A stretch of DNA of 64,000 nt from Candidatus Woesearchaeota archaeon (GCA_002688775.1 NZDH01000004.1:54543-118542), one strand, 5' to 3'. Shown: positions 4,280 to 31,389, numbered from the stretch's first letter. Notes: a model not told the origin generated them from the letters alone. Translations and numbers: made by a program.

Positions 4280-5746
4280 ATGAATACAACAAAATTCAAA
4301 TCCACAGTTACAAAAGGAAATAATAGAGGCGCTGGTTTTATTCGCATTCCTTTACAGCTTAGAGATAATTTTTCAATTGGAGATCAATACAAAGTAAGTA
4401 TAGTTTCAAAAATAGAATATTATTCAAAAATAAGAGATTATCGTGGTAAAGGCATATTTGTTCCTACTCAAATTAATATAAAAAATAAATTGTATAAAAA
4501 GGAAGTTAAAGTTAAATTAAAGAAAATTGATGGATTTTATACAAAAGTTGGATCAGAAGGTAGAATCTATATACCTAACTCCTATAATCTTAAAAGAAGT
4601 GATATCATTTCAATAAGTGCTACAATCAAGGGAAAGGAAATAATAAAATATCCAAAAATTTATTTAAGAGAAAAAGGTACTTCAAAAGAATTTATCTTTT
4701 ATTTGAATCCAATTCTTCATAATGAGGAAGTCATTATTAAAGTAAATGAAATTTTTCCAAAGAATAAACTTACTCACTCAAATAAATTATTTAATTTGTT
4801 ATTAAAAGATTTTGATTTTGCAGAAATAGATAAGAACAAAATAATTATATTTTATGGGAATAGAGTTCCTATTATTATAAATAATAATATGGATATTAGT
4901 AATTTAGCTTATTATCTTGGATGTTATTTCGCAGATGGAACTAAAAAAGGAAATCATTGGGGTATTTGTGCTTCGACTTTTGAACTAGCAAATTATTTTA
5001 TTAAAAATCATAATAAAATTATATCCGATTCAAATATTATTTTCTCTTTAACATGTACTAAATATCATTTTGATAACATTGAAAAATTAAGAGATGACTT
5101 AATAAATATTTGGTCAAATAATATTAATTCTAATATTAAAATTCGAAGAGTAAGGATAATTAAAACTCATGCAAAACATTCTCCTAATAGAGGCCCATAT
5201 GGTACTTTATCAATGAATGAACCTCGACAGCTTACTCAGATATATTACAATCGGTTGCTTAAATACTTATTCGATAAGACTATGAAAGAATCAAATAAAG
5301 AATTAGCAACTGATTTTATTTGTGGTACTATGGAAGGTGACGGTTGCGTCAATTCAAAAACACATAGCCATATTTTGATATCTACAAATGCAGAAGAGAT
5401 TAAAATTCTAAAAAAGATATGTGATAATAGTTATCTCAAATCAGGAATACGAGCTTGGGAGGGTAGTAAGAATAGAGTTGATTTATTAATTGGCTCTTTA
5501 GAAATAATCAAAAATATTTCCATATTAAAAGATAAGTTATTTAAATATTACCCAAAAAGAAGAAAGATATTAAAAGAGAGGCTGGCAAATACTGGATGTT
5601 CAAGATTTTTATTAGGAAAAACTAAAAAAACTTCAAATTGGCTTATAGGCCAGTTAAATAATTATGGAATATTAGATGGAAAAGGGAATTTAACCAAGTT
5701 TGGAACTAAAATAAAAAAAGATTTAAAGAGCTTCCTAAGTGACTGA
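4280..5746 (+). CDS. free-standing double-motif LAGLIDADG homing-endonuclease-like protein with ~200-aa N-terminal extension
   Basis: Two LAGLIDADG-like motifs, LAYYLGCYFADGTKKG and FICGTMEGDGCVNSK, lie about 125 aa apart. The protein is extremely N/K/I-rich. The N-terminal GFIRIPLQLRDNFSIGDQYKV might be an AbrB-like swapped hairpin, which is a weak call. Confidence 0.55.
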   Translation: MNTTKFKSTVTKGNNRGAGFIRIPLQLRDNFSIGDQYKVSIVSKIEYYSKIRDYRGKGIFVPTQINIKNKLYKKEVKVKLKKIDGFYTKVGSEGRIYIPNSYNLKRSDIISISATIKGKEIIKYPKIYLREKGTSKEFIFYLNPILHNEEVIIKVNEIFPKNKLTHSNKLFNLLLKDFDFAEIDKNKIIIFYGNRVPIIINNNMDISNLAYYLGCYFADGTKKGNHWGICASTFELANYFIKNHNKIISDSNIIFSLTCTKYHFDNIEKLRDDLINIWSNNINSNIKIRRVRIIKTHAKHSPNRGPYGTLSMNEPRQLTQIYYNRLLKYLFDKTMKESNKELATDFICGTMEGDGCVNSKTHSHILISTNAEEIKILKKICDNSYLKSGIRAWEGSKNRVDLLIGSLEIIKNISILKDKLFKYYPKRRKILKERLANTGCSRFLLGKTKKTSNWLIGQLNNYGILDGKGNLTKFGTKIKKDLKSFLSD

Positions 5747-6222: not shown

Positions 6223-6851
6223 CTCATCAAATTCATAAACTCTTCTTTTGTATTGCACTTAAAGTAAGGATTATTCTTTTTTTCATCTCCAATTGTTGAA
6301 GATGGTGTTGAGCCGTAATCGTGGCCGGGGTAAATTTCTATATTATCATCTAATTTTTTGAGTTTTTGCAGACTTTCAAATAATTGAATTGGGTTGCCGC
6401 CAGGCAAGTCTGTCCTGCCGATAGCGCTGACAAATAAGGTATCGCCTGTGATCAATTTGTTTTCAAAAAGAAGGCAGATTGCACCAATTGTATGGCCCGG
6501 TGTGTGGATAATCTTTATTTTTATGTTTCCGACTTTGATTTCTTCATTATCTTTCAATTTTATGAATTTGATTTCGTTTTTTATTGATCTTTTGATTTCA
6601 TCTATTTCCAGTTCATGAAAATAAATTTCTGCTTTTGTTTTATCTGCCAATTCACTGACTTTTTGCACATGATCATAATGGGAATGCGTCAATATTATCT
6701 TTTTTATCTGTAATTTTTCATTGTTTGCAGTTTCTATCAGCTTATCAATATCCCATCCTGCATCTACAATGGCAGCTTCTTTGCTGGCTTCATCTCCAAT
6801 CAAGTAGATGAAGTTCTGCATCGGCCCTACTGGTATTTGCTTGAAGAACAT
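6219..6851 (-). CDS. MBL-fold metallo-hydrolase (glyoxalase II-like)
   Basis: HSHYDH is the HxHxDH zinc motif, and a downstream HTPGHT follows. Confidence 0.75.
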   Translation of the reverse strand: MFFKQIPVGPMQNFIYLIGDEASKEAAIVDAGWDIDKLIETANNEKLQIKKIILTHSHYDHVQKVSELADKTKAEIYFHELEIDEIKRSIKNEIKFIKLKDNEEIKVGNIKIKIIHTPGHTIGAICLLFENKLITGDTLFVSAIGRTDLPGGNPIQLFESLQKLKKLDDNIEIYPGHDYGSTPSSTIGDEKKNNPYFKCNTKEEFMNLMS

Positions 6852-6900
6852 TGTATTAAATAATTTAGAATAATTTATAAATGTTGTTTATTTTTGAAGA

Positions 6901-7425
6901 TTGAATAAGAAAATGCAGAAGTATTCTAAAACCACAATTGAAAGTTATGACAAAACTGTTGATGATTATGCAGATATGGTTAGGACTTTATCCCCGTCTA
7001 AAGAATCTAAGATTTTTCTTTCGTTAATTGGCAGAAATTCCTCAATATTGGATCTTGGTTGCGGGCCTGGAAGAGACTCCAAAATATTTGCTGACAAAGG
7101 GTACAAAGTAGTTGGGATTGATTTATCAAGAAGGATGATAAAATCTGCTAAAAAATTTGTTAAGAATGCGGATTTTAAAGTTATTGATATGATGAATCTT
7201 AATTTAAAGACCAATTCATTTGATGGGATATGGGCTAACGCAGCTCTTCTCCATTTAAGAAAAAGAGATTTTCCTAAAGCACTTAAAGGGGTATACAGGA
7301 TTTTAAAGAAAGATGGGATTTTCTATTTAAGTCTTAAGCAAGGGAAGGGTGAGGGAATTGTATCGGACCACAGATACGGAGGGATTAAGAAATTCTGGTC
7401 ATTTTTTCAGAAAAATGAAATATAA
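6901..7425 (+). CDS. class I SAM-dependent methyltransferase
   Basis: ILDLGCGPGRDS is the glycine-rich motif I, and the acidic motif VVGIDLS follows. Confidence 0.75.
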   Translation: MNKKMQKYSKTTIESYDKTVDDYADMVRTLSPSKESKIFLSLIGRNSSILDLGCGPGRDSKIFADKGYKVVGIDLSRRMIKSAKKFVKNADFKVIDMMNLNLKTNSFDGIWANAALLHLRKRDFPKALKGVYRILKKDGIFYLSLKQGKGEGIVSDHRYGGIKKFWSFFQKNEI

Positions 7426-7535
7426 AAAATATTGGGAAAAAATAGGTTTAGAGTCATCAAAAGTTATGTTAAAAAAGATAAAAATGCTTATTATACCCAT
7501 CCATGGATAAGTGTATTCTGCAAAAAACAATGAAA

Positions 7536-8288
7536 TTATGTAACTTTTCTTGCAAAACTTAAAAATCCAGAATGAATTAAGCCACTACTTTTCGGCCTTA
7601 CTTTTCTGTCTTCAACTTCCCATTCTCTCTGTGTTATTTCAATTGTTTTAAGATAAACAAAATTTTCATTTTTCCTTAAAGTGTTGACAAAATCAGCAAT
7701 TTGAGGTATTGTTGGGCTGTAAGAAACTAAAAATCCTCCTGGTTTTAGCGCTTTTGAGCAACTTTCTAATGCTTTCCATGGTTCAGGCAGATCTAATGTT
7801 ATGACATCTATGTTTTTTTCATCACATTCTTCATAAATATTTTTATTTTCAATCTTTAAATTATTTAAATTCAATAATTCTATATTTTGTTTCACTATTT
7901 CAATAAAATCTTCCCTTATTTCATATGTTATGACTTCTTTTGCAATCTTTGCAAGAAAACAAGCTAAAGCTCCACTTCCAGAACCAGCATCAAGAACTAG
8001 GCTTCCCTTGTTAATGCCTGTTTCTGAAATGATTATCCCAATATCCTTTAATGGTATAATTTGAGCGTCTCTTTTTATTTTTCTATAGACATCTATGAAA
8101 GACGGATCAAATATATGGAATTCTTCATTAGTGTTTGATTTGAGCAAATCACCTTGTTTTGCATTTTTTAGCTCTTCTTTTGATACAAACCCATATTGAG
8201 TATGTAAATCCTGCCCAAGATCTTTGGCATAGAACTTCCTGCCTTGCTTTGTGATAAGTATTTTTTTGATTAGAGCCATAAATAACAA
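7536..8288 (-). CDS. trmI: tRNA (adenine-N1)-methyltransferase TrmI/Gcd14-like
   Basis: VLDAGSGSGALACFLA followed by YEIREDF matches TrmI family members. Confidence 0.7.
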   Translation of the reverse strand: MLFMALIKKILITKQGRKFYAKDLGQDLHTQYGFVSKEELKNAKQGDLLKSNTNEEFHIFDPSFIDVYRKIKRDAQIIPLKDIGIIISETGINKGSLVLDAGSGSGALACFLAKIAKEVITYEIREDFIEIVKQNIELLNLNNLKIENKNIYEECDEKNIDVITLDLPEPWKALESCSKALKPGGFLVSYSPTIPQIADFVNTLRKNENFVYLKTIEITQREWEVEDRKVRPKSSGLIHSGFLSFARKVT

Positions 8289-8322
8289 AGAAAAAGAAGT
8301 CTTATAAAAATTTAATTAAAGC

Positions 8323-8568
8323 TTACTTCCTGCCTTTCTTAGCTGGTGCTGGTGCACTGCAATGTCCACATGTAGGCTTTGCTAATTTAAGAAGACCTTT
8401 TAGCACTAACAAAGCACCGATCACTACCCAAATATCCCATTGGGTGTAGAGTCTTACCAGAATTAATATTGCACCTATAACTATGAACTTTGCGCCCCAG
8501 CACTTGCTGCAGACACCATCATGACATACTTCGCCCATATTAGACACCTCCTTTGAGTCTATATGCAC
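8323..8568 (-). CDS. small membrane protein with paired Cys motifs
   Basis: A 2-TM hairpin is flanked by CHDGVCSKC and CGHCS. Confidence 0.4.
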
Positions 8569-8813
8569 TTATTGGAATTAGCACTATATAAAGCTTTCTA
8601 TTTGAGTTTTACTGATAAAATAGAAACATTTAAAAATAATGAACATAAGTTCTTAATAAAAGTGTAGATTATTGTAAATAATGAACTAAAATATTATAAT
8701 AATAAACTATAATATTAAAAAAATGATTATGTATATGGTTAAAACAAATAGTATATAGTAATTAATGAATATGTATTGGAAAATAATGTATGAATATTAA
8801 TAAAAAATAAACA

Positions 8814-9332
8814 ATGCTATCATTATCGGATAATGAGTTCAGTGTACTTAGCTTTCTGGTTAGAAATTTCACTGAAAGGCTTACAATAAGGAGCATCGCC
8901 CAAAGGCTTGGTTTTAGTGCAGCTGGTGTCTTCAATATTCTAAAGAAACTTGAAAAACGGAATATTGTTGTTGGGCAAAAGCTTGGGACAGGATTGTTTT
9001 ATTCTGTCAATTTTGAAAACAAGATAGGCAAGCATCTGGCTGCGATTGTCCTATTATATTCTGATGAGAAAATAACTTTTGATGTTGAGCAAATAAAACA
9101 GGCAAAGGCTGCTATTTTTGATAAAAAAAGTCTGCTTCTTATTACTGATAATGTAACTGAGATTAGTGTTTCTATACCAGATGTAAATGTCATTGTAAAA
9201 ACAGAGGATGAAATTTCTGATTTATTTAAGAAAAAAGATCAGGAAACCCTTCAATTACTGAAAAAAGGATCTGTCTTGTTTGGAGAAGATAAATTTGTCG
9301 AAATAATTAAAAAATGCAGTTCAGGATTTTAA
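8814..9332 (+). CDS. winged-helix DNA-binding protein, translationally coupled to the giant protein downstream
   Basis: The N-terminal IRSIAQRLGFSAAGVFNILKKLEKRNIV is wHTH-like. The TAA stop is at 9330-9332 and the next ATG is at 9334. Confidence 0.5.
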   Translation: MLSLSDNEFSVLSFLVRNFTERLTIRSIAQRLGFSAAGVFNILKKLEKRNIVVGQKLGTGLFYSVNFENKIGKHLAAIVLLYSDEKITFDVEQIKQAKAAIFDKKSLLLITDNVTEISVSIPDVNVIVKTEDEISDLFKKKDQETLQLLKKGSVLFGEDKFVEIIKKCSSGF

Positions 9333-9333
9333 C

Positions 9334-12300
9334 ATGAAAAAACTGAATAAAATATTAAGTGTAATGATTTTGATACTTGCATTTGTGTTATTTTCATCTA
9401 TTGTTTATGCTGCTCCTCTGACTGACATGTTTGTAGGCGGATTAATACAAATTAATGATTTCTTTGAAAATGAGCAATTTGCTCCTTATGCAACTGCAAT
9501 TGACTTTTTCTTCTTTACATTACTGTTCACAGCTATATATATGATGGGTGCAAGGTATGCATTTAAGGAAATTAAAAGACCAGAGCAAGTAATTGTGATT
9601 TTACTCGGATTAATGACTGGGTTTTTGCTTGTGTTAGGTGGTTTTTCAGCAACTATCATTCTTCCTTACATACAATGGCTTTTGTATTTGCTGCTGTTCT
9701 GGATAATCTGGAAATTATTAAGCGGAATAAAAAATCCATTCTGGAGATTTATATTGGCATTGCTGTTGACTTTGCTGCTGATTGCATTGTGGCAAGGGAT
9801 GTTTAATGCATTAACTACACCAGATGTTGGAGCTCCACAAGTTGGTGGATTTTTTGGTTCTATTGGCAAATTCTTTAGAGATCTTGGAAGCAGTTTTACA
9901 GGAATTAAGATGCCAGGAGTCGGAGTGCCTGGAATTCCTGATGCTTTACAGGATCTGTTAGGAGAGCCTGGCGGGGTTGGAGCTGGGGAACCTACTGGGC
10001 CTGAAGGGTTGCCTGTGGTTACGACGCCAACTGGACCAACTGTTGTGGAAGAAGACGGGGGATTTTCTTTAGGGAATTTGTGGTGGATTCCTATTTTAGC
10101 GGCATTATTGTGGGCAGGTAATTATGCGCGCAAGAAGGGATGGCATAAATGGAGACCACGTAAAAAAGATAAACCAAAAACAATAGATGAAGTTAAAGCA
10201 GAGATAGATGATATAATTAGGAAAAAAGCAAATTCTAAAAGAAATATTATAGCAAGAAGCGATGAAAAGAATCAAATTATTCAAGCTGAAGATAGAAGAA
10301 CTGCTTTTTTAAGCAAATTAAGAGATAAAGATCCTGCAAATCTGTTTGGAGATGAAGCTAGAAGAGTAATTGATGCCGAAGGTGGAGCTTTTAAGGAACT
10401 TCTTGACAAAGAAATTCAATTAGTAGATGAACTTAAAAAATTGAAAGGTATAGAGAAAGATTTGTATTTGAAATTAGATCTATGGCAACGATCTCTTCAA
10501 GGTACAGTTGATATAAGTCCAGAAGTAAATGGCCTTAAAATTTTGATTGGTAATAAGACAACTATTCGTGACATAATAAATATGGGTATAATATGGCTAA
10601 CTGTAATCTGCTATGATATTGAAAAACGAAATGAGGTATTGACTAAAGAATTAGGAAGCTTATTGGATGATGAAGATAAAATTGAGGAGCTTGTCCAAGG
10701 CAAATTTACAACTGTTAAAAATGATGAAAGAAAATTAAGTCATTATAATTCAACTGAAATTGAATATATTGAATTATTAGAGCAAAAAATTGATGAGCAG
10801 ATAAATAAATTAAATGAATTAAAAAGAAAAATTGAAGGAACTCCACATACAGGACCTTATGGTGCACCATACGGAGCGCCTTATGGAGCGCCAGGTGGAA
10901 GGCGTGGAGGACCTTATGGAGCTCCTTACGGGGCACCTTATAGTGGTCCTGGTAGTGCAGGACCAACACCTTCTGGAGGGACTGGAAGTCCTTATGGGGC
11001 TCCCTATAGTGCTGCTGGAGCTGGAGGAACTTATGGGGCACCATACGGAGCGCCTTATGGGGCTCCTTATGGAGCGCCAGGTGGAAGGCGTGGAGGACCT
11101 GGTAGAACGACTCCACCTAGAGGTAGAAGAAGAAGTGGCAGACTTAGAATTCTAATGCTCAGCCCAACGCACCCACATGCAAGCAATGGGGTTTCTGAAG
11201 TTGTGAAAAATTTATCTTTAGCTCTAAATTCAATCGGTGTAGATGTTGAGGTACTAACTAAATGGTTTAATGAGCCATATTATTACTATGATAAAATAAA
11301 TTCTGCAGAACAAAAATTTGACACTATTGGAGAATTTTTAAATTCAAAGAACAAAGATTATTATGATTTCATACATTCTCACACATTTACATTTTCACAG
11401 ATTTCTGATACTGGCGATGGAGAAACACCTTGGAATAAATTGTTATCCCATTTTAATGTTCCATCAGCTTATACAGTTCATTCTTTAGATATTCATGAAG
11501 CTTTAACATGTAAGTGGACTTCAACAAATTACAATTATCATAAGTGGGTTGGTGAACAACTTCAACCAGTAGTTTTTGATAGTGTAAACTGCATAATTCA
11601 ATTGACAAAAACCTATAAGGAATTAACTGAAGAAATGTATCCAGGAAAAAATTACAAGTATAAATCGGTTATAATCCCTAACGGTATAATTTTAAAAAAT
11701 AGATATTCAAAACGAACACCAAATCCAAGTGAGATTAATATGCTATACTTGGGTAGATTCGAAAGAAGAAAGGGAATATACGAATTATGTGTTGCTTTTG
11801 GGACCCTTACAAAAAAATATCCAAATTTAAAGCTCCATCTTGTAGGTAGTGGTCAACCGAGAACTCCAATTCCATGGTTTAATCGGGTTGATGTAGAAAC
11901 TAAAGTCATGAAAAGAATACTTAAAAGAGGGAGTGTACCAAGTGATAGGTATGTGCTCCACGGTGTAAAGCGGGGTACAGAGAAGGAAAACATAATTAAT
12001 GATGCTGATTTTGTCATATTACCAAGCTATTTTGAAACTTTCTGCCTAGTTGGCTTAGAAGCGATCAATCAAGCTAGACCACTAATATCATCAAAGGGTC
12101 CGGCTCTTAATGAAGTATACATAGAGAGCGGATTGGCTTATCCAATAGACTTTGGGGAGTTAAGGTACAATTCCGGAGTAAATTCACAGGGCTTTGTTAG
12201 GCTTAGAGTTGAAAAAATAGTTGAAGCAGTTTCAGGTTTCATAGATAACCTTGATGAATATAGGCAAAGATCTGAACAAGTTTGGCAACTAGTCCAAAGA

Positions 12301-13317
12301 AATTCTGAATTATTTAACTGGGTGTCAATTGCAAAAAATACTAAAATAGTTTATGACAGTCTGATTCAAAACGGTTTAGTCCCAAATGTTGAAATTACAG
12401 TTCCAAATTTTATGCCACCTATTAGGCCAAGACCTCCGGGAAGTTCAGGTCCGGGATCTACTGGAAGGGGCACCACACCGCCTGGAGGTTCAGCACCCCC
12501 ACCATCTGGAGGAACTGGAAAAAGAACAACACCTGGAGGTCCTGCTAAGCTGAAGATAATTGAAGTAGATAATCAAAATCCTAAAATAATTGATAATGTT
12601 AGATTTACTTTAAAACTTGAACATCATAAAATACCTAGAGGAACAAGTTATGAAGTAGTCTTAATTGATAGGGATAGAAAAGGAGGAAAAACATTAGGGG
12701 AACGTGAGATCCAAAGATTTAGAATAAGTAAGCTTGTTAACTCTAAGTTTGCAGTTACTGTTGATGCGTCAAGAATTGGTGCTGGAGTGTATGATTATAT
12801 CTTAGTTAGAATCTTGAATATTTATCCTGATTCTGATAATAAAGATCTAGATTCTGATTCAATTACAATTAATGTGTCAGGATCAACTGAAGATGCAAGT
12901 GCTGAATGGCAAAATGCAAAATCTAAATATTCTAGTGATCGTGATTTTATTGGTTTTCTCACGACTGTAAACAGTTTTGATTGGATCAGAGGAAAGTATC
13001 CTAACATTGATTTGGTTAAAGAAGTCGTAAATTTAATAGTAGATGTCCTTATGGATACACCGAGGTATCATGACAACAAAAGAATAAAAAGGAAAGTTTT
13101 GCAAATGTTCCATCCTGATGTTGTTAAAGCATCATCTAAAGAAACTTACGAGTTATATGGGGAACTTTTCAAAAAGTTTAGTGAATATTTCACAAAAGAA
13201 AGACTTGCTAGTCCAACTAGTTATTCAAGAAAAGCTGATGCCTTAAAGCATGACGTTGATTCATTATTCATAGAATATGCAAGAAAGACTGGAAGGACTA
13301 GAAGAAGAGCAGCCTAA
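9334..13317 (+). CDS. 1327-aa mosaic membrane protein: signal peptide + multi-TM module + Gly/Pro linker + coiled coil + PYGAP tandem repeats + GT4 glycosyltransferase + Pro/Gly linker + beta-rich domain + J-domain-like HPD tail
   Basis: The protein starts with a signal-like N-terminus and 4-5 hydrophobic helices. The GT4 core runs RILMLSPTHPH ... LYLGRFERRKG ... LHLVGSG ... FVILPSYFETFCLVGLEAIN, which is the E-x7-E motif. The C-terminal KRKVLQMFHPDVV ... ELFKKFSEYF resembles a J-domain. Confidence 0.75.
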   Translation: MKKLNKILSVMILILAFVLFSSIVYAAPLTDMFVGGLIQINDFFENEQFAPYATAIDFFFFTLLFTAIYMMGARYAFKEIKRPEQVIVILLGLMTGFLLVLGGFSATIILPYIQWLLYLLLFWIIWKLLSGIKNPFWRFILALLLTLLLIALWQGMFNALTTPDVGAPQVGGFFGSIGKFFRDLGSSFTGIKMPGVGVPGIPDALQDLLGEPGGVGAGEPTGPEGLPVVTTPTGPTVVEEDGGFSLGNLWWIPILAALLWAGNYARKKGWHKWRPRKKDKPKTIDEVKAEIDDIIRKKANSKRNIIARSDEKNQIIQAEDRRTAFLSKLRDKDPANLFGDEARRVIDAEGGAFKELLDKEIQLVDELKKLKGIEKDLYLKLDLWQRSLQGTVDISPEVNGLKILIGNKTTIRDIINMGIIWLTVICYDIEKRNEVLTKELGSLLDDEDKIEELVQGKFTTVKNDERKLSHYNSTEIEYIELLEQKIDEQINKLNELKRKIEGTPHTGPYGAPYGAPYGAPGGRRGGPYGAPYGAPYSGPGSAGPTPSGGTGSPYGAPYSAAGAGGTYGAPYGAPYGAPYGAPGGRRGGPGRTTPPRGRRRSGRLRILMLSPTHPHASNGVSEVVKNLSLALNSIGVDVEVLTKWFNEPYYYYDKINSAEQKFDTIGEFLNSKNKDYYDFIHSHTFTFSQISDTGDGETPWNKLLSHFNVPSAYTVHSLDIHEALTCKWTSTNYNYHKWVGEQLQPVVFDSVNCIIQLTKTYKELTEEMYPGKNYKYKSVIIPNGIILKNRYSKRTPNPSEINMLYLGRFERRKGIYELCVAFGTLTKKYPNLKLHLVGSGQPRTPIPWFNRVDVETKVMKRILKRGSVPSDRYVLHGVKRGTEKENIINDADFVILPSYFETFCLVGLEAINQARPLISSKGPALNEVYIESGLAYPIDFGELRYNSGVNSQGFVRLRVEKIVEAVSGFIDNLDEYRQRSEQVWQLVQRNSELFNWVSIAKNTKIVYDSLIQNGLVPNVEITVPNFMPPIRPRPPGSSGPGSTGRGTTPPGGSAPPPSGGTGKRTTPGGPAKLKIIEVDNQNPKIIDNVRFTLKLEHHKIPRGTSYEVVLIDRDRKGGKTLGEREIQRFRISKLVNSKFAVTVDASRIGAGVYDYILVRILNIYPDSDNKDLDSDSITINVSGSTEDASAEWQNAKSKYSSDRDFIGFLTTVNSFDWIRGKYPNIDLVKEVVNLIVDVLMDTPRYHDNKRIKRKVLQMFHPDVVKASSKETYELYGELFKKFSEYFTKERLASPTSYSRKADALKHDVDSLFIEYARKTGRTRRRAA
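10851..11100 (+). repeat. in-frame tandem repeat encoding (P)YGAP units; two near-identical ~60-70-nt blocks at ~10854-10914 and ~11029-11100
   Basis: The nucleotide repeat ccttatgg(g/a)gc(a/g)cc(a/t)ta(c/t)gg... recurs directly. The protein repeats are PYGAPYGAPYGAPGGRRGGP, written twice. Both antisense track ORFs (10715..11116 and 10832..11155) are artefacts of this repeat. Confidence 0.85.
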
Positions 13318-13326
13318 TTTTTCTTA

Positions 13327-14052
13327 TCATCCCTTACTATGCAAGACATATTCCCTTGTGTGAGTAAAATCCAAAGAGAGTCTTGGATCTAAAATTGTTC
13401 TTGTTAATTGGTGTTCAGTTAATACCTGATCTGCTATTGGAAGCTTTCTTATTTTGCCAACCATAGTCGGATCATATCGATAACAATCTATAGCTACTTC
13501 TCTGGTCATAGGCATACCTATAAGGTGTGGTGGAGGTCTTACAAAAAATTCATATTCTATTGTCCCATATCTTTCAGCTGTTTCTTGAAAAGAAACATCA
13601 TCACCACGTTTGTCATCACTTGCGCCCATTAGATTGAGATGTACTAAATTACCCCCCCTATCTTCTATTGCTAACAATCCCCCTCTTGAGTTCTCATATC
13701 TTTCAGGAACATCAGCAACAGTCCAGGCTTCCAAACCAGGTTTAATAATTTGATCTAACATGCATGGATGGGAATGTGAAGCAAAAAGTACAAACCTATC
13801 ATCAGTTGCTAATTGTCGCCTATATGGTAAATTTGCTTGTAAAACTGTAGTCATAATTGATTCCAATCCAGGAATTGCATCCAAAGAGACACTTGTTTCT
13901 GTACCTCCATGAGGATCTGTACATTGTGTAACATATATTTCTGTATCAGAAACTCTTTCTCCAAGTAATAAAATTATATATTCTCTGTCAGTAAGAACCA
14001 TATTTGTCAATGTATCTTTTATCCACTGTGTTATGTATACTGTTTCTACCAT
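13327..14052 (-). CDS. hypothetical protein, compositional outlier, possible JAB/MPN-like HSHP motif
   Basis: The protein is K-poor and T/R/D-rich, unlike its neighbours. LFASHSHP resembles the JAMM core, but the downstream S-x2-D is not conserved. It is convergent with the giant gene. Confidence 0.35.
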   Translation of the reverse strand: MVETVYITQWIKDTLTNMVLTDREYIILLLGERVSDTEIYVTQCTDPHGGTETSVSLDAIPGLESIMTTVLQANLPYRRQLATDDRFVLFASHSHPCMLDQIIKPGLEAWTVADVPERYENSRGGLLAIEDRGGNLVHLNLMGASDDKRGDDVSFQETAERYGTIEYEFFVRPPPHLIGMPMTREVAIDCYRYDPTMVGKIRKLPIADQVLTEHQLTRTILDPRLSLDFTHTREYVLHSKG

Positions 14053-14137
14053 TTTTGAATTCGATTAATTTTGACCTTTTGAATTATTACAAAGTAAAAA
14101 CATTTATATAATATGATATTATTAAATCTTTGTAAAA

Positions 14138-14596
14138 ATGACAGTAGAACAACAATTACCACCCCCGCCAAAGAAGCATGAAGGATTCATGAAGTTCGGT
14201 CATTCACATCAGCAGCAGCAAGGGCCTGACATGAGCGGAATAAATTCTGAGATGAATACTTTAGGAAGAAGGTTAAGATTGTTGGAAGAGGGTTTCAGCA
14301 ATCTGAGAAGGTTTTTTCAGGTTACTGAAGAGAATATCATAGCAAAGAACAAGCATTACTCAGCTGAGATCAAAACAGTAACATCGGATATTACTGAATT
14401 AAGAAAAGAAATCCAGGAATTAAAAGATAAGATGCTCCTTATCATCAAAGAACTGCAGACAGTTGCGAGAAAAGATGAGGTCAAGGTTCTTGAGAGATAC
14501 ATAAACCTGTGGAATCCTGTCAGATTTGTAACCCAGAATGAGATTGACGGGATAATCAACGAAGTTCTTGAGAAAAAAAGCAATAGAAAGGTTTAA
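14138..14596 (+). CDS. coiled-coil protein, unknown function
   Basis: Heptad-like LRKEIQELKDKMLLIIKELQ follows a Q-rich N-terminus. Confidence 0.4.
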   Translation: MTVEQQLPPPPKKHEGFMKFGHSHQQQQGPDMSGINSEMNTLGRRLRLLEEGFSNLRRFFQVTEENIIAKNKHYSAEIKTVTSDITELRKEIQELKDKMLLIIKELQTVARKDEVKVLERYINLWNPVRFVTQNEIDGIINEVLEKKSNRKV

Positions 14597-14638
14597 ATAT
14601 GCTCATTAAAAGTATATTTTAAAAAGAGAGGTGAATGA

Positions 14639-15322
14639 ATGGCTTTCTTTAAGTTTGGAAAGAAGAAAGAGGAACCTTTAGATATTCCGATGCAATCTCC
14701 TATGCCGGAGATGCAGCCAAGTAATTCTCCAGTTGAGCAAGTTCAAATGATGAAGCAGCAAGGCTACACCAACAATCAGATTACCCAATCATTGCAAGGC
14801 CAGGGTTACAACAGTTCTCAGATATCCGACGCTATAAGTCAATCAAGCTTAAGCGGCAATTCACAAGGCGGCAAAGAAATGGGAATGCCGGATTACGGGC
14901 AGAGTTACGAGCAGCAACCTTATCCACAACCCCAAGTGCAGGATTTTCAGCCTCCAAGAGAAATTAGTGCACCTGCAACCGTAGATGAAGAAAGAATACA
15001 AGAAGTTACAGAAGCCATTATTGATGAAAAATGGGATGAATTTGCCAATGACATAAGGAAGGTAATAGACTGGAAAGAAAAAAGCGAGGACAGGATAGCA
15101 AAAATAGAGCAGCATTTAATTGATTTAAGCTCGAGGATTGATTCTCTGAGTAAGGGCATTATGAGCAAGATTTCAGCTTATGATCAGAACATTGTGGATG
15201 TGGGGACTGAAATAAAAGCGATGGAAAAAGTTTTCCAGAAAGTGCTTCCAAACTTAACAGAGAACGTGAATAAGCTTGACAGGATTACTAAAGGCTACAA
15301 AGAGACACAAAGAAAAGCTTAA
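14639..15322 (+). CDS. Q/S-rich N-terminus + C-terminal coiled-coil protein, unknown function
   Basis: The N-terminal half is low-complexity and the C-terminal ~110 aa are predicted coiled coil. An SD, gagaggtgaatgaATG, sits upstream. Confidence 0.4.
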   Translation: MAFFKFGKKKEEPLDIPMQSPMPEMQPSNSPVEQVQMMKQQGYTNNQITQSLQGQGYNSSQISDAISQSSLSGNSQGGKEMGMPDYGQSYEQQPYPQPQVQDFQPPREISAPATVDEERIQEVTEAIIDEKWDEFANDIRKVIDWKEKSEDRIAKIEQHLIDLSSRIDSLSKGIMSKISAYDQNIVDVGTEIKAMEKVFQKVLPNLTENVNKLDRITKGYKETQRKA

Positions 15323-15591
15323 TTTCATCTGATTAAAGGTAATTTAGTTCTAGTTAATTTTATTTTTTAAAAAGTATTTTTATTGATAAAAAGAGACCAG
15401 TACAATACAGAAGAAATAAGTGCACAAATAATTCATTAAGTGTTTGTGAACAAATCATTAATGTATCTGTGGCTAATCTCCAGTAACTAAAACTCATTAA
15501 AGAATTAAAAATAATTAAATAAAAAAATAAATCAAATGAAACGAAAAAATCAATATAGAGCGAACGGATTGAAAATAATCCAGAAATATTT

Positions 15592-16089
15592 CTATGAACC
15601 TCTAGAGGCAATCAAACCAATTGTAAAAATAGCTATTGCAAAAATCAAAACCGTGCCAAGAAATTTTGGATGCAGAATGAGATTTATTGATTTTGACAAG
15701 TCTTGTGGATTTTCTTGTTCTCCGATTTGATCTTTTACTTTTACTCCAGCACCGATTATAATTACAACTAAAACAATTACAAAAAATATGACTTTTACCG
15801 AATGGAAAGAATCTAAGTCGCCACCCAACATTTTCAATGCGACATTCAATAAAACTACAAACAAGAAAACAACTGCAATGAAGGGTGCTGTGCTTGCAAC
15901 TACGCTTGTTGCAATAGGCGATATCAATACAAAAATACCCATCAATAACCCTACAATGAGGTAAATGAACTTATTATCGCCAAGAGCTTTTGTCCATAAG
16001 ACAACAGCATATACTACTATCCAAACAAAAAGAAAAACAAATATGCTTGAGAAATACTGCAGACCTGATACATCTAAGAACGTTGCCAT
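15592..16089 (-). CDS. multi-pass membrane protein, paralog C of a three-gene tandem family
   Basis: IFVFLFVWIVVYAVVLWTKALG aligns with the other two paralogs. Confidence 0.6.
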   Translation of the reverse strand: MATFLDVSGLQYFSSIFVFLFVWIVVYAVVLWTKALGDNKFIYLIVGLLMGIFVLISPIATSVVASTAPFIAVVFLFVVLLNVALKMLGGDLDSFHSVKVIFFVIVLVVIIIGAGVKVKDQIGEQENPQDLSKSINLILHPKFLGTVLIFAIAIFTIGLIASRGS

Positions 16090-16115
16090 ATTAGTAAATC
16101 AATATTTATTGGGGC

Positions 16116-16736
16116 TTAATGTCCTCCTTTGCCGCCGCCAAAAAGCTTGCTGAAGTCTGCACCTAATCGGCCCATTGTCGATCTATCTTCTTTTTCTTTT
16201 GAATCGCTTGTGATCCATGCTATTATTATGCCGAATACCAAGAGCATTATAACAACAGCTATACTTTCACTTCCAAAGAAACGCGTCAATGTATTGCCGA
16301 AATAGCCAGACCACCATCCAGCAGCTCCGCCGAATATAAGTATAATTACAATAAAGGAAAAAAATGCAACCCATCCCGGCATAGATAACCCTAAAAATAC
16401 CTTATCCTGGGCAAACACACCTATTAAGATTAGTAGAAAAATTATTGCAACAAGGACTACTGAGATTGATGGCAGGGCGTTGCTTATAATCAACACAGGA
16501 TCAGCATAAGCAGGAAATCTGCCGGTTATATGGGGGATGACAACAAGCAAACCAACCACAATCGAAACGACAATGTTAAGGTTTTTCTTCGCTGCCCCTA
16601 GAATTTCTGATTTTTGAAGGATTGCGTAAATAATAACAAAGATAAGTAAAAAGACAAGTAATACCTCTACCCTCCATCTGTCCAAAAGTAATATGAAATA
16701 ATCAAGCTGATAAGCTGGAGCAGCCATTTTTTGCAC
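16116..16736 (-). CDS. multi-pass membrane protein, paralog B
   Basis: VLLVFLLIFVIIYAILQKSEILG...KKNLNIVVSIVVGLLVV aligns with paralog A. Confidence 0.6.
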   Translation of the reverse strand: MQKMAAPAYQLDYFILLLDRWRVEVLLVFLLIFVIIYAILQKSEILGAAKKNLNIVVSIVVGLLVVIPHITGRFPAYADPVLIISNALPSISVVLVAIIFLLILIGVFAQDKVFLGLSMPGWVAFFSFIVIILIFGGAAGWWSGYFGNTLTRFFGSESIAVVIMLLVFGIIIAWITSDSKEKEDRSTMGRLGADFSKLFGGGKGGH

Positions 16737-16781
16737 CTCTTTATATTAATTATTTTTATATTAGTATATAAACTTTATGAA

Positions 16782-17366
16782 TTATTTATGTTGTGATACT
16801 GCCTTTGATGGTTCTTTTGTAGCATAGACTATGAAAACTACCATCAATCCAAGTAAAATAATAGATCCAGCCAGTACATCACCGCCTCCTGAACCTGAAA
16901 ATCCACCTAAACGCTCCAGCCAGGTCTGACCATCGCTGGTTTTTATTGAATCAAGAAAAATACCAAGGATTGCTATGAATACTATGATCATAAATGTAAT
17001 TTTCCAGCCTCCTTGCAAATGAGTAGGTTCTCCTTCTTTGTGGAAAGAGCCTATTAATAGAAGGAATAGAACGCTGAAGAAAAGGACAATAACAGCTTTG
17101 GCTACAGTTTCATTTATAATTTCCACTAATTCCCTGGTTGCAATCACCAAGAACGCTATTACAAAAGAAGCAATTGCATTAAGGTTCTTCTTCGGAAAAT
17201 TTTTTCCTCCGATTTCTTCAGTGCCCAGAACTTTTGTCTTTTCAAGTATAGCAAAAACAATAGTAAAAACAAGCAGGAAAGGCAATACAACATCAAATAA
17301 TCCAATCTGGTCAAAGAAAGTGATTACTTCTCTAAAAGGAGAATCTGCTGTAACGTGGCTAGTCAT
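16782..17366 (-). CDS. multi-pass membrane protein, paralog A
   Basis: FLLVFTIVFAILEKTKVLG...KKNLNAIASFVIAFLVI aligns with paralog B. Confidence 0.6.
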   Translation of the reverse strand: MTSHVTADSPFREVITFFDQIGLFDVVLPFLLVFTIVFAILEKTKVLGTEEIGGKNFPKKNLNAIASFVIAFLVIATRELVEIINETVAKAVIVLFFSVLFLLLIGSFHKEGEPTHLQGGWKITFMIIVFIAILGIFLDSIKTSDGQTWLERLGGFSGSGGGDVLAGSIILLGLMVVFIVYATKEPSKAVSQHK

Positions 17367-17452
17367 ACTATTTTTACTCTGATATTGGTATTTAAATGTT
17401 TTGGTTTTTTCTATTAAAAACCTTTATAAATATAACAAGAACTTCAGATATT

Positions 17453-18022
17453 ATGCTAAACAAATCAGAATTCAAGAAAATAAGGAATGAAATGCATAAA
17501 CTAGATGTTGAAAGGGAGAAAGTGATCCAGACATCAAGAGAGATAATTTCAATCTCAAAGCAGATCATCTACGCTTCGCAGAGAAATGACCTTAAAACCG
17601 CTTCTTCTGCAATAAAAAAAATTAATGACAAAATAAAGAAATTAAGAAGTATCAAAGTTCCTGCTGATACAAACATTAATTCAGTTGCTTTCCAGGAATA
17701 TGTTGAAGCCATTTCTTTTTATGAATTTGTAAGGAACAAAAAAATACCAACAAGAAAAAGTCTTGGGGTAAGCGCCGATCATTATCTAAGCGGGCTTTGT
17801 GATTTGACTGGAGAGCTAGTAAGAAAGGCAATCTATGATGTAATCCACAAAAAATTTGAAGAAGCTGAAAAAATTAAAGAATTGGTGCATGACATCTATG
17901 GGGAATTCCTGAAGCTGCACTTAAGAAACGGCGAATTAAGAAAGAAAGCTGATTCTATAAAGTGGAATCTTAAGAAATTGGAAGAAGTGATGTATGATGT
18001 TTCTGTTAAAGGAAGAAGATAA
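17453..18022 (+). CDS. translin family protein (archaeal)
   Basis: YLSGLCDLTGELVRKAIY matches the translin Y-x-G-x-x-D-x-x-GEL-x-R signature. I set the start at the internal Met (MLNKSEF) rather than the hydrophobic track start. Confidence 0.65.
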   Translation: MLNKSEFKKIRNEMHKLDVEREKVIQTSREIISISKQIIYASQRNDLKTASSAIKKINDKIKKLRSIKVPADTNINSVAFQEYVEAISFYEFVRNKKIPTRKSLGVSADHYLSGLCDLTGELVRKAIYDVIHKKFEEAEKIKELVHDIYGEFLKLHLRNGELRKKADSIKWNLKKLEEVMYDVSVKGRR

Positions 18023-18065
18023 AATCTCCAATAAATTTAAATAACTTCTTTAAAAACTATATTTC

Positions 18066-20297
18066 ATGAAAAGAACGCATACTTGCGGAGATTTGACTGA
18101 TAAAGATGTCAATAAAAAGGTGACTTTATCGGGCTGGTGCTCTACAAGAAGAGACCATGGCGGTGTAATTTTCATTGACTTAAGGGACAGATATGGATTG
18201 ACACAAGTAGTTTTTGATCCGAGCCATAACCTGGAAAGCCATAAGACTGCAGAAACTTTGAGGAGAGAATATGTAATCACAGTTGAGGGTCATGTCAGGA
18301 AAAGACCTGAAGGCATGGAAAATAAAAATTTACCAACAGGCAAGATAGAAGTTCTTATGGACGAAATCCTTAGCGTCAACAAAGCACAAACTCCCCCTTT
18401 GGAGATTGATGATAACATTGAAGCTTCTGAAGATATAAGGCTGAAATACAGATATCTTGACCTGAGAAGGAATAAGATGCAAAAGCAGCTGATGTTCAGG
18501 CACCAGCTTTCAACTGCAATAAGGGAATACCTAAATCAGCAAGGCTTTATTGAGATTGAAACACCGATGATGATCAAGACTACTCCAGAAGGAGCCAGAG
18601 ACTATTTAGTGCCAAGCAGAATCCATCCTGGAAAATTTTATTCATTGCCGCAATCTCCGCAGATATACAAGCAGATCTTGATGATTGCTGGCTTTGATAA
18701 ATACTACCAGATAGCAAGATGCTTGAGAGACGAAGATTTGAGAACTGACAGGCAGCCAGAGCATACTCAAGTTGATCTAGAGATGTCTTTTGCTGATGTT
18801 GAAGATATATTTCACATTACAGAAGGCCTTATCAAAAATGCTTTCAGAAAACTTCTAAATAGAGATGTGAAAACTCCTTTCAAGAGATTTTCTTATGCCG
18901 AATCAATGGAAAAATACTGCACAGACAAGCCGGACATAAGATTTGGGATGGAATGCTGCACTGTTACAGACATAGTCAAAGATTCTGAATTCAAAGTGTT
19001 TCTTGAAGTCATAAAGAAAGGAATTGTAAAAGTGTTGAATGCAGAGAGTTGCGGAGAAAAATTAAGCAGGAAGCAAATCGACGAGTTAATTGAATTTGCC
19101 CAGCAGAATGGCGCAAAAGGACTTGCGTGGATGAAAGTAACAAAGAATGGATTGGAAAGCAATATTGCGAAGTTTTTTCCTGAAAAAGTGCAGAAAGAAT
19201 TAATCAAAAGAGCTAAAGCAAAGCATGGAGATTTACTGCTGTTTGCAGCTGACAATCCAAAAATAGTAAATGACGTGCTTTCAAAAATCAGGTTAAGATT
19301 AGGAAATTCCTTCGGATTGATAAAGAAAGATAATTTTGATTTTTGCTTTATAACAGACTATCCTATGTTTGAATGGAACGAAGACGAGCAAAAATGGGAT
19401 TTTAGCCATAATCCTTTCACAATGCCAAGGGAAGAATACTGGAAATATCTGGAAACAGATCCAGGCAAGGTAATCTCTTATCAATATGATTTTGTCATGA
19501 ACGGATCTGAACTTTTCTCAGGCTCTGTGCGAAACAATATTCCTGAGATGCAGATGAAAGCCTTCAAAGTTACCGGAATGCCTGAGAATGAGATAAAAGA
19601 AAAGTTTGGGTTTTTGCTTGAAGCGTATAAGTATGGAGCGCCAAGGCACGCTGGATTTGGTATGGGTTTTGACAGATTGGCATCGCTGATGCAGGGGATC
19701 CATGACATAAGGGAAGTTATCGCTTTTCCAAAGAACAAGGCAGCTGAAAATCCGATGGATGATTCGCCAAGCGAAGCAAGCGAAAGACAACTTCAGGAAC
19801 TCCATATCAAACTGGATTTTGTCAAAGATTCAGGAAATGTTGTGTTGGGTAAAATTAAAGATGTTTTGGATAAAGAAAAGATCGAGTATGAAGTTTTAGA
19901 GCATAAAGCTGTTTTCACAAGCAAGGAAGCTGCTCAAATTAGAGGAACAGAATTAAAGCAAGGTTGTAAAGCTTTGGTTTGCAAAACAGAAGAAGGTTTT
20001 ATTCAGGCTGTTGTTAGCGGTGAAAAAGAGCTTGACTTGAAAAAACTGCAGAAAATTACATTATTTAAAAATTTAGAGCTTGCTAATGCCAAAGATGTGA
20101 AAAAGGCAACTGGCTGCAATATAGGAAGTGTTCCACCATTTGGAAATCTACTGGGATTGAAGGTTTATTTCGATAAATCTGTTGCACAAAATGAAATTGT
20201 TGCCTTCAATGCAGGAGCACACACAAAAAGCATTAAAATGAAAGGCAAGGATTTGGTTAAAGTTGTTAATCCTATTGTTGGGGAGTTTTCTAAGTAG
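18066..20297 (+). CDS. aspS: bacterial-type aspartyl-tRNA synthetase (with GAD insertion domain) fused to a C-terminal YbaK/ProX-like aminoacyl-tRNA deacylase domain
   Basis: Class II aaRS motifs and an anticodon-binding N-terminus are present, the GAD domain spans ~aa 290-420, and the canonical AspRS end ERQLQELHIKL is intact. A further ~150 aa carry GCKALVCK and GCNIGSVPPFG, which are YbaK-like K-x-L-x-x-K and G-x-x-x-G-x-x-P-F-G. Confidence 0.8.
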   Translation: MKRTHTCGDLTDKDVNKKVTLSGWCSTRRDHGGVIFIDLRDRYGLTQVVFDPSHNLESHKTAETLRREYVITVEGHVRKRPEGMENKNLPTGKIEVLMDEILSVNKAQTPPLEIDDNIEASEDIRLKYRYLDLRRNKMQKQLMFRHQLSTAIREYLNQQGFIEIETPMMIKTTPEGARDYLVPSRIHPGKFYSLPQSPQIYKQILMIAGFDKYYQIARCLRDEDLRTDRQPEHTQVDLEMSFADVEDIFHITEGLIKNAFRKLLNRDVKTPFKRFSYAESMEKYCTDKPDIRFGMECCTVTDIVKDSEFKVFLEVIKKGIVKVLNAESCGEKLSRKQIDELIEFAQQNGAKGLAWMKVTKNGLESNIAKFFPEKVQKELIKRAKAKHGDLLLFAADNPKIVNDVLSKIRLRLGNSFGLIKKDNFDFCFITDYPMFEWNEDEQKWDFSHNPFTMPREEYWKYLETDPGKVISYQYDFVMNGSELFSGSVRNNIPEMQMKAFKVTGMPENEIKEKFGFLLEAYKYGAPRHAGFGMGFDRLASLMQGIHDIREVIAFPKNKAAENPMDDSPSEASERQLQELHIKLDFVKDSGNVVLGKIKDVLDKEKIEYEVLEHKAVFTSKEAAQIRGTELKQGCKALVCKTEEGFIQAVVSGEKELDLKKLQKITLFKNLELANAKDVKKATGCNIGSVPPFGNLLGLKVYFDKSVAQNEIVAFNAGAHTKSIKMKGKDLVKVVNPIVGEFSK

Positions 20298-31287: not shown

Positions 31288-31389
31288 TAGCGGAGGCTAG
31301 ATTTGAACTAGCGACCTATGGGTTATGAGCCCATCGGGCACTCCTGATTGGGCGCCTGGAACAGAGTCCAAACTCTGCCCTACTCCGCT
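31288..31389 (-). tRNA. tRNA-Met(CAT), initiator-like (A1:U72, three G-C pairs closing the anticodon stem), with ~27-nt insertion in the D-arm region
   Basis: The minus-strand read is AGCGGAG-TA-[GGGC...48 nt...GCCC-G]-ATGGG-CTCATAA-CCCAT-AGGTC-GCTAG-TTCAAAT-CTAGC-CTCCGCT-A. The acceptor, anticodon and T arms are canonical. The D-arm segment is about 27 nt too long. Confidence 0.75.

Follow-up and report, generated by a model that had tools for sequence, protein, structure and literature searches.

Does the glycosyltransferase that lies inside a very large membrane protein of a Woesearchaeota archaeon define what that protein is for, with a regulator of its own encoded just ahead of it, or is it one of several payloads that the same membrane protein can carry? 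The locus is within a 64,000-nucleotide (nt) stretch from Candidatus Woesearchaeota archaeon (GCA_002688775.1, NZDH01000004.1:54543-118542; hereafter the window, with positions counted from its first letter). It consists of two abutting open reading frames (ORFs) on the + strand, 8814..9332, coding for a winged helix-turn-helix (wHTH) protein of 172 amino acids (aa), and 9334..13317, coding for a protein of 1327 aa with an internal family-4 glycosyltransferase (GT4). The reading that we prefer, at a little better than an even chance (about 0.55), is that the 1327-aa protein represents one allele of a Woesearchaeales-restricted membrane platform that tethers interchangeable cytoplasmic enzyme cassettes, and that the wHTH protein is the partner of this platform. 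Few DPANN archaea have been cultured, and most of their lineage-specific genes count as "dark matter"; the locus is such a case, a conserved two-gene chassis without annotation in Pfam, NCBIfam or the PDB.

The exchange was seen by comparing the window with its closest relative, TARA contig L002, which carries a C1 peptidase where the window has the GT4. In blastn alignments the right flank (13997-19296) was 98.8% identical in nucleotide sequence over 5.3 kb and the left flank (8323-10110) was 87% identical; between them, over 10110-13997, no nucleotide similarity to L002 was detectable. The left breakpoint at nt ~10110 corresponds to aa ~259 and falls within the fifth transmembrane (TM) helix, TM5; the right breakpoint falls near the start of the convergent gene dn241 (241 aa; 13327..14052, - strand), within its 5' end. 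At the protein level the wHTH product was 92% identical between window and L002, the product of a 152-aa coiled-coil gene 99.3%, and those of five further downstream genes 100%; over aa 1-520 of the giant protein the identity in successive 40-aa bins was 82, 95, 98, 100, 80, 75, 35, 38, 45, 38, 40, 42 and 28%. More than one independent assembly has each allele: that of L002 recurs in L003 and L004, and that of the window in L086. Region 10110-13997 is a strain-level replacement cassette, and it shows what defines a replacement flexible genomic island, namely that genomes otherwise nearly identical differ at one site by content that is not homologous. A known island of this kind, fGI1 of the ammonia-oxidizing archaea, serves envelope glycosylation in marine prokaryotes (bioRxiv 10.1101/2024.04.23.590705) and is alike in its non-homologous, glycosyltransferase-rich content at the same site of near-identical genomes; the present cassette differs in that it is 3.9 kb long, lies inside a single gene, starts at a TM helix, and has a peptidase as its alternative allele. 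The notable property of the locus is this replacement at a TM-helix boundary beside a near-invariant wHTH partner, and an intragenic strain-level swap placed at a membrane helix is both a marker and a target for DPANN microdiversity and selection. The flanks are asymmetric: the left side from 6494 to 10110 (metallo-beta-lactamase (MBL) hydrolase, GCD14 methyltransferase, small ORF, wHTH gene and TM module) is 87-93% identical to L002 in nucleotide sequence, against the 98.8% on the right, a difference that points to linked divergence of greater age or extent on the wHTH side.

With aa 1-280 as query, phmmer returned 124 proteins at E <= 1e-3 among 1.84 billion cluster representatives; among the GTDB species representatives there were 31 loci in 31 assemblies, all titled Woesearchaeota/Nanoarchaeia or generic metagenome-assembled genomes (MAGs), and the locus appears to occur once per genome across the Woesearchaeota/Nanoarchaeia MAGs. 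The title "uncultured Methanosarcinales archaeon" on GTDB MAGs L012, L013, L015, L018, L020-L022, L025-L027, L031 and L040 probably serves as a placeholder or is an erroneous NCBI organism name. The 37 first-round hits, all from Woesearchaeota/Nanoarchaeota metagenomes, are 60-66% identical over aa 1-210, or ~45% over aa 1-500, and diverge thereafter, and local jackhmmer searches found the membrane module and the helical domain behind it in all 37. Pairs of members with membrane modules 89-94% identical had only 2-34% identical residues over the rest of the protein. No description of this membrane family was found in the literature searched.

Among 34 members the recognizable payloads were Glycos_transf_1 in six, Peptidase_C1 in four, and PP2C_2, Glycos_transf_2 and PKD in one each, with TIG plus FHA in one more distant member; about two thirds of the 34 had no Pfam match beyond the core. 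A GT4 enzyme within a protein of this architecture had seemed, in the preliminary description of the locus, to be without parallel. It is not unique, the GT4 being fused to the core in those six members, from at least three GT4 clades that are only ~20% identical to one another: clade A comprises the window, L001 and L032 (51-55% identical), clade B comprises L005, L033 and the split L035 (56-64% identical), and the GT4 of L008 stands alone. Payload type is incongruent with the relatedness of wHTH gene and flanks, as clade A recurs in L032, whose wHTH protein is only 71% identical to that of the window. In other genomes the same parts are separate genes. L035 has a 515-aa GT4 gene starting 5 nt past a 783-aa core gene (E = 4.5e-84 with a hidden Markov model of the fused GT4s); in L010 a GT4-like ORF follows the core gene in the same reading frame after an in-frame stop (11918-11924), and this single stop could be genuine, a sequencing error or a site of read-through; in L034 the tail is a separate 273-aa ORF that overlaps the core gene by 4 nt; and L009 has, after the core gene, a 1242-aa gene with a double family-2 glycosyltransferase (GT2). 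From the fusions together with the adjoining separate genes it follows that the core repeatedly associates with glycosyltransferases, either in cis or as a neighbour, and fusion and fission together provide a "Rosetta-stone" link between the two. One member with a peptidase (P0032/L006) was named "C1 family peptidase" by NCBI after the payload alone, the conserved core being invisible to annotation; pipelines name these genes by their payload, and such names call for caution.

The wHTH gene goes with the core. At all seven homologue loci inspected it lay directly upstream of the large gene, whatever the payload, in the order GlmS, acetyltransferase, MBL hydrolase, GCD14-type methyltransferase, small ORF, wHTH, giant gene; in the GTDB loci (~30) it was upstream in essentially every locus having upstream sequence, and the gap was mostly 1-4 nt or a short overlap. 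A reciprocal search seeded on the wHTH alignment yielded 45 metagenome loci, 24 with at least 1.5 kb of downstream sequence, and a gene with the N-terminal membrane module (N-module) was present on the same strand within ~840 bp in 24 of these 24. The wHTH proteins of 33 loci were 63-92% identical over their full length with a median of 73%, and are therefore more conserved than the protein that they supposedly regulate; in the window the wHTH gene lies outside the swapped cassette. Because the wHTH gene stands beside the core whatever the payload, the linkage is with the conserved membrane core. The two genes had been described as a dedicated regulator-effector pair. Their tight and specific linkage was upheld by the GTDB loci and by the 24 metagenome loci, but not a dedication to the GT4, as the wHTH gene precedes cores carrying a GT4, a C1 peptidase, a PP2C domain, others or no payload; the protein is, as far as these comparisons can tell, best regarded as a partner of the conserved membrane core rather than as a GT4-dedicated regulator.

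The junction between the two genes reads ...GGA TTT TAA C ATG AAA..., with the TAA at 9330-9332 and the ATG at 9334, so that the coupling is as tight as had been supposed, but a 1-nt spacer separates the genes and they do not overlap. Upstream of the wHTH gene is a 245-bp AT-rich intergenic region (8569-8813). The wHTH occupies aa 4-62 of the 172-aa protein and is followed by an unannotated C-terminal domain of ~110 aa; over aa 4-53 the Pfam matches were MarR_2 (36.3 bits, cutoff 27) and HTH_24 (25.6 bits, cutoff 21.9). The canonical MarR architecture (a central wHTH with flanking dimerization helices in ~140-150 aa) was not found, and since the wHTH is N-terminal with ~110 aa behind it that match no family, we take the protein to be a generic wHTH protein and no bona fide MarR; there was no close relative in the PDB (best E = 0.085). 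In BlaR1/BlaI and MecR1/MecI, too, a small wHTH gene neighbours the gene of a polytopic membrane protein with an external loop and an enzymatic domain in the cytoplasm. Gene order and domain families differ, and neither kinship in sequence or fold nor any sign that the wHTH protein is cleaved or sequestered turned up, no comparison having been aimed at these systems.

The division of the 1327-aa protein into seven modules strung together in a single mosaic ORF was borne out by ORF calls, Pfam, hydrophobicity and AlphaFold2 (AF2) models, although two of the modules changed character. Hydrophobicity and the family consensus mark a signal peptide (aa 1-26, 9334..9411) ending in a VYA↓A cleavage-type site, where the family consensus is A-Y-A↓K-P. 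The four-TM module (aa 27-160, 9412..9813, with TM helices at aa ~50-160), assigned from hydrophobicity, AF2 and conservation, shows identities of 82-100% with the closest relative and of 89-94% among members that diverge elsewhere, and its invariant residues include D57, R74, Y75, K78, K81, E84, W137 and R138. The acidic segment that follows (aa 161-250, 9814..10083) is Gly/Pro-rich in composition (G 23%, P 12%), as had been described, but TM helices bracket it on both sides, and with TM5 at aa 251-267 it is predicted to be an extracytoplasmic loop and not a plain linker. Within it, aa 171-191 (GGFFGSIGKFFRDLGSSFTGI, 9844-9906) form a Gly/Phe-rich amphipathic helix, modelled by AF2 at aa 173-189, with a hydrophobic moment of 0.55, at or above the 99th percentile for the protein; its motif is conserved (family consensus FFks.G.sFkgI.fp....PG.P.), and it resembles viral fusion peptides and magainin-type peptides. 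TM5 and the K/R-rich stop-transfer stretch behind it, RKKGWHKWRPRKKDKPK, cover 10084..10182 (hydrophobicity, AF2, charge). The "coiled coil" of the preliminary description is helical indeed, but is a helical-bundle domain (aa 284-501, 10183..10836; four-helix-bundle type, predicted cytoplasmic), modelled by AF2 with a predicted local distance difference test (pLDDT) score >90; it evolves fast, with 35-45% identity to the closest relative. For the core as a whole no annotated relative was found in Pfam, NCBIfam or PDB, and the helical domain matched generic helical-bundle neighbours only. At several loci (L064 at 4533-5499, L066, L067, L071, L077 and L037-L039) a four-TM-only copy of the N-module (~160-170 aa) lies directly before the longer N-module gene, the short and the long gene being a tandem duplication of the membrane module.

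All members share the same hydrophobic pattern, with no TM helix after TM5, and the charge of the segments between the helices was taken across the 34 members as net charge (K+R minus D+E). It was +2.0 for the N-terminus, +2.1 for the TM1-2 loop, +3.4 for the TM3-4 loop and -2.4 for the TM4-5 loop of about 90-100 aa; the TM2-3 turn has no K/R at all, and the stretch after TM5 is K/R-rich with about 10 K/R. These loop charges, the number of TM helices and the signal-peptidase-type site together predict that the region after TM5 is in the cytoplasm and the mature N-terminus and Gly/Pro loop are outside. The cytoplasmic side fits where GT4 (with its nucleoside diphosphate (NDP)-sugar donor), GT2, PP2C and FHA domains would be expected to act.

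Between the helical domain and the GT4 is a low-complexity repeat of Tyr/Gly/Pro (PYGAP) and RGG units (aa 505-598, 10846..11127). At the DNA level the repeat is imperfect, with 74-88% matches, so that recent slippage or an assembly artefact is unlikely at this place. Tyr/Pro/Gly-rich repeats recur mostly just before a GT4 (10846-11127 in the window, aa ~486 in L001, aa ~948 in L008 and aa ~693 in L035); the repeat of L035 forms the C-terminal end of the core gene ahead of the separate GT4 gene, and L002 has a repeat without a GT4. Such repeats could serve as a flexible tether or, speculatively, as an acceptor segment.

That the next region (aa 599-1025, 11128..12408) is a real glycosyltransferase, predicted to be a GT-B fold family-4 enzyme of retaining type, was supported by Pfam matches above cutoff and by intact donor-binding and E-x7-E motifs, with NCBIfam and PDB alignments in accord. 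Glycos_transf_1 (PF00534), the C-terminal Rossmann domain, scored 48 bits against a cutoff of 26.4 over aa 797-930 and Glyco_trans_1_4 47.8 bits against 27 over aa ~797-930; Glyco_transf_4 (PF13439), the acceptor-side Rossmann domain, aligned to aa 618-786 at 22 bits, under its cutoff of 28.5. Full-length collinear NCBIfam alignments paired aa 649-1010 with positions 55-390 of the glgA_Coryne profile, and aa 605-1010 with positions 2-351 of that for Agl16. The best match among solved structures was the C-domain of Pyrococcus abyssi glycogen synthase, with whose GRFDRGQKG and FEPFGLVALE the donor motif LGRFERRKG (nt 11749-11775) and the E-x7-E motif FETFCLVGLE (nt 12031-12060) align; GR...K and the second Glu are invariant across eight GT4s of the family. 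Judged by these motifs the GT4 should be catalytically intact. What it has in common with the GT4 family and with the P. abyssi enzyme is the probable layout of two Rossmann domains, the GR-x4-KG donor-phosphate motif and E-x7-E; what sets it apart from stand-alone GT4s is its position in mid-chain, between low-complexity linkers of a 1327-aa polytopic membrane protein. A search with the GT4 domain found only two weak stand-alone GT4s, though this was a word-index search, which also missed the collinear homologue P0001; the window GT4 is ~20-31% identical to the stand-alone GT4s found.

A second linker, rich in Pro/Gly/Thr/Ser (aa 1026-1074, 12409..12555, from composition), leads to the C-terminal region, for which the AF2 model of aa 1075-1327 (pLDDT 71) shows a beta-sandwich and a helical tail. 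The sandwich is Ig/FN3-like (aa 1075-1181, 12556..12876; AF2 and sharing within the family) and the tail (aa 1186-1327, 12889..13317 with the stop codon) was drawn from AF2 and conserved motifs. In local iterative searches the two together were common only to P0001, P0002, P0017, P0028 and P0033; a homologue search with the C-terminal region gave a single 99%-identical fragment only, and Foldseek against the PDB gave only generic Ig/FN3 sandwiches at E >= 0.04. By alignment the tail has an FHPD motif after a basic helix (aa 1259-1262, 13108-13119). A J-domain was considered for the tail and rejected: Pfam DnaJ gave nothing at E <= 10, hhalign 21% over 15 columns and Foldseek nothing, and FHPD is not invariant, being HED or HTD in two relatives. 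The last residues, RR(x)RAA-COOH (aa 1321-1327, 13294-13314), are conserved in five proteins including P0001, P0002, P0017 and P0028, in which the adjoining sequence is otherwise divergent; a role as a degron-like tag or a recognition signal at the terminus is possible.

The convergent gene dn241 occurs only with giant proteins of the sandwich-plus-tail subclade. Its product was 50.6% identical to the L002 copy against 99-100% for the neighbouring genes; it thus co-varies with the giant-gene allele and belongs to the swapped cassette. It had no Pfam, PADLOC or PDB match. The conserved motifs E-x3-[IL][LF]LG ... HSHP ... [ST]-x2-D are JAB/MPN-like with a non-canonical 13-residue spacing, and hhalign with PSMD14 (an approximate sequence) was collinear over 86 columns at a probability of ~10%; dn241 may, at low probability, be a JAB/MPN metalloprotease by its motifs.

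From these results we infer where the GT4 acts and on what, what the wHTH protein does and what force selects the alleles. The fixed half of the protein would comprise the cleavable signal peptide, the four-TM bundle, whose cytoplasmic loops carry invariant charged residues, the external acidic loop with its amphipathic helix, TM5 and the cytoplasmic helical domain; everything past TM5 would be a replaceable cytoplasmic cassette, made up in this genome of the Tyr/Gly/Pro-RGG spacer, the GT4, the second spacer, the Ig-like sandwich and the helical tail, with dn241 included. Held at the inner membrane face by the platform through long flexible linkers, the GT4 would most likely move a sugar from a cytoplasmic NDP-sugar onto a membrane-proximal acceptor, candidates for which are a glycolipid, the lipid-linked precursor of a glycan, or the precursor of a protein of membrane or envelope. 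The same platform would elsewhere bear a C1 peptidase, PP2C phosphatase, GT2, FHA/TIG, PKD or domains of no recognized family, and in some genomes the GT4 would be supplied by a separate gene immediately downstream of the platform gene. The wHTH gene would be co-transcribed and probably translationally coupled with the platform gene, its product acting as an autoregulator of the operon or as a factor that docks on the platform. A wider proposal, of a lineage-wide and hitherto undescribed "polymorphic platform" with a fixed wHTH and five-TM chassis that displays the amphipathic, fusion-peptide-like helix on the outside, whole cytoplasmic cassettes (GT4, papain-like peptidase, PP2C and others) swapped between strains by recombination at TM5, a JAB-like partner in one clade, and diversifying selection from viruses or the symbiont-host interface, we hold to be possible but quite tentative; if true, the locus would represent a new archaeal class of self/non-self or host-interaction modules, and no housekeeping glycosylation enzyme.

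Close to that proposal, and in our estimate unlikely, is a polymorphic conflict or host-interaction system, in which an N-terminal membrane or delivery module bears recombination-shuffled effectors and dn241 serves as the cognate immunity, processing or JAB-type protease partner, under selection by viruses, competitors or the symbiont's host. It would account for a conserved N-terminus and variable C-terminus with the breakpoint exactly after TM5, for the co-variation of dn241, and for payloads at odds with relatedness (C1 peptidase in L002, the closest relative; GT4 clade A in the distant L032). Five of the six GT4 members also match Pfam GT4-conflict, although Glycos_transf_1 outscores it, and the conserved helix on the external loop is amphipathic and fusion-peptide-like; the payload is predicted to be cytoplasmic, however, and has no secretion or release domain. 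Polymorphic toxin systems (PMC3482391) and VARTIG of Thermococcales (PMC8416519), the latter a precedent for such a system, are alike in having a conserved N-part, a C-part exchanged by recombination with the adjacent gene or genes, and strain-level variation inside a conserved locus. Here, by contrast, there is no known toxin, trafficking or Ig-hypervariable domain (no toxin domain was recognized by Pfam or NCBIfam, and PADLOC matched neither the giant protein nor dn241), the payloads, enzymes of metabolism or signalling, are predicted to be cytoplasmic, and the partner gene, confined to one subclade, is not co-directional but convergent. Nor were there orphan cassettes downstream, and the locus, coupled to a highly conserved wHTH gene, is single-copy and universal in the lineage amid housekeeping synteny.

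The function first proposed for the locus, in which the wHTH protein is the dedicated transcriptional regulator of the GT4 effector and the pair is a cell-envelope or surface-layer (S-layer) glycosylation machine, we also consider doubtful. The 1-nt spacing of the genes and a genuine GT4 with intact motifs are in keeping with it; glycosyltransferases are the commonest recognizable payload (fused in six of 34 and, as a separate GT4 or GT2 gene, directly downstream in L035, L010 and L009), and marine archaea are well known to have glycosylation islands that vary between strains (bioRxiv 10.1101/2024.04.23.590705). The same wHTH protein (63-92% identical) nevertheless precedes alleles with a C1 peptidase, with PP2C or with no recognizable enzyme, and its gene is not part of what is swapped; moreover, the conserved neighbourhood is without an oligosaccharyltransferase, flippase or S-layer gene, and no characterized Agl enzyme was matched at equivalog level, the only Agl-type match being Agl16 at 22.4 bits against a cutoff of 575.

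Several observations weigh against our own reading of the 1327-aa protein as a membrane platform for exchanged cytoplasmic enzymes. Since the core has no annotated relative, "platform" is a structural interpretation. All NCBIfam equivalog matches of the GT4 were far below their cutoffs and its specificity cannot be read from sequence; the "splits" of L035 and L010 could be frameshift or stop errors of the MAGs; and in the upstream 245 bp, inspected by eye only, neither an archaeal promoter nor an operator for the wHTH protein was identified. As to topology, AF2 (aa 1-520) renders residues 82-130 as one continuous helix with a pLDDT of 58-70, and if they are a single TM helix, there is one TM span fewer and the C-terminal part is outside the cell; the papain-type C1 peptidase, PKD, TIG and CarboxypepD_reg domains of relatives, and the Pro/Thr-rich linkers, are more typical of extracellular proteins, and Pro/Gly/Thr linkers with an Ig-like sandwich are typical for archaeal surface proteins. 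On these grounds the part after TM5 might be on the cell surface, as a surface-anchored enzyme or adhesin array. We judge this improbable: it would place ~10 K/R just outside TM5 and the TM3-4 loop (+3.4) on the outside in 34 of 34 members, the conserved GG-x-S-x-T...P turn at aa 101-111, without K/R, fits a tight TM hairpin, and GT4, GT2, PP2C and FHA domains require cytoplasmic substrates (NDP-sugars, phosphoproteins). The SPEARE-type proteins of Nanohaloarchaeota are reportedly very large proteins of DPANN archaea, in which enzymatic domains are joined with unrelated ones of adhesion type, and are considered surface-exposed; by that description they are much larger, and the window family has its own conserved five-TM core. 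No homology between the two was seen, no comparison having been aimed at it.

That the 1327-aa ORF is an artefact, a mis-assembly or frameshift fusion of core, GT4 and tail genes, is highly improbable: although GT4 (L035, L010) or tail (L034) are separate ORFs in some MAGs and no near-identical independent contig spans the left cassette junction at nt ~10110, fused GT4 alleles are known six times independently, with samples and assemblers differing, the repeat DNA is imperfect, and the ORF is uninterrupted across 3984 nt of ~35% GC, where stop codons are frequent. P0001/L001 (1263 aa; Logan assembly SRR22387914, from a different sample) is collinear with aa 21-1286 at 45% identity with the same Pfam content, and runs through the junction of repeat and GT4; L086 (ENA ERZ5402418) is 99% identical in nucleotide sequence to 12840-15316, and 100% over 12840-13997. 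Both bear out the single gene assumed from the start, as opposed to a mis-join or frameshift at the repeat.

Elsewhere in the window, at 31292-31344 (- strand), there is a weak Rfam tRNA match, which at 30.3 bits barely exceeds the gathering score; ARAGORN did not call it, and it may represent a truncated, split or intron-containing tRNA. At 15592-17366 (- strand) three consecutive genes encode small membrane proteins of 165, 206 and 194 aa, for which no kinship with the N-module was found; the products of 16116-16736 and 16782-17366 (206 and 194 aa) are paralogous (E ~1e-8), and all three are 100% identical in L002.

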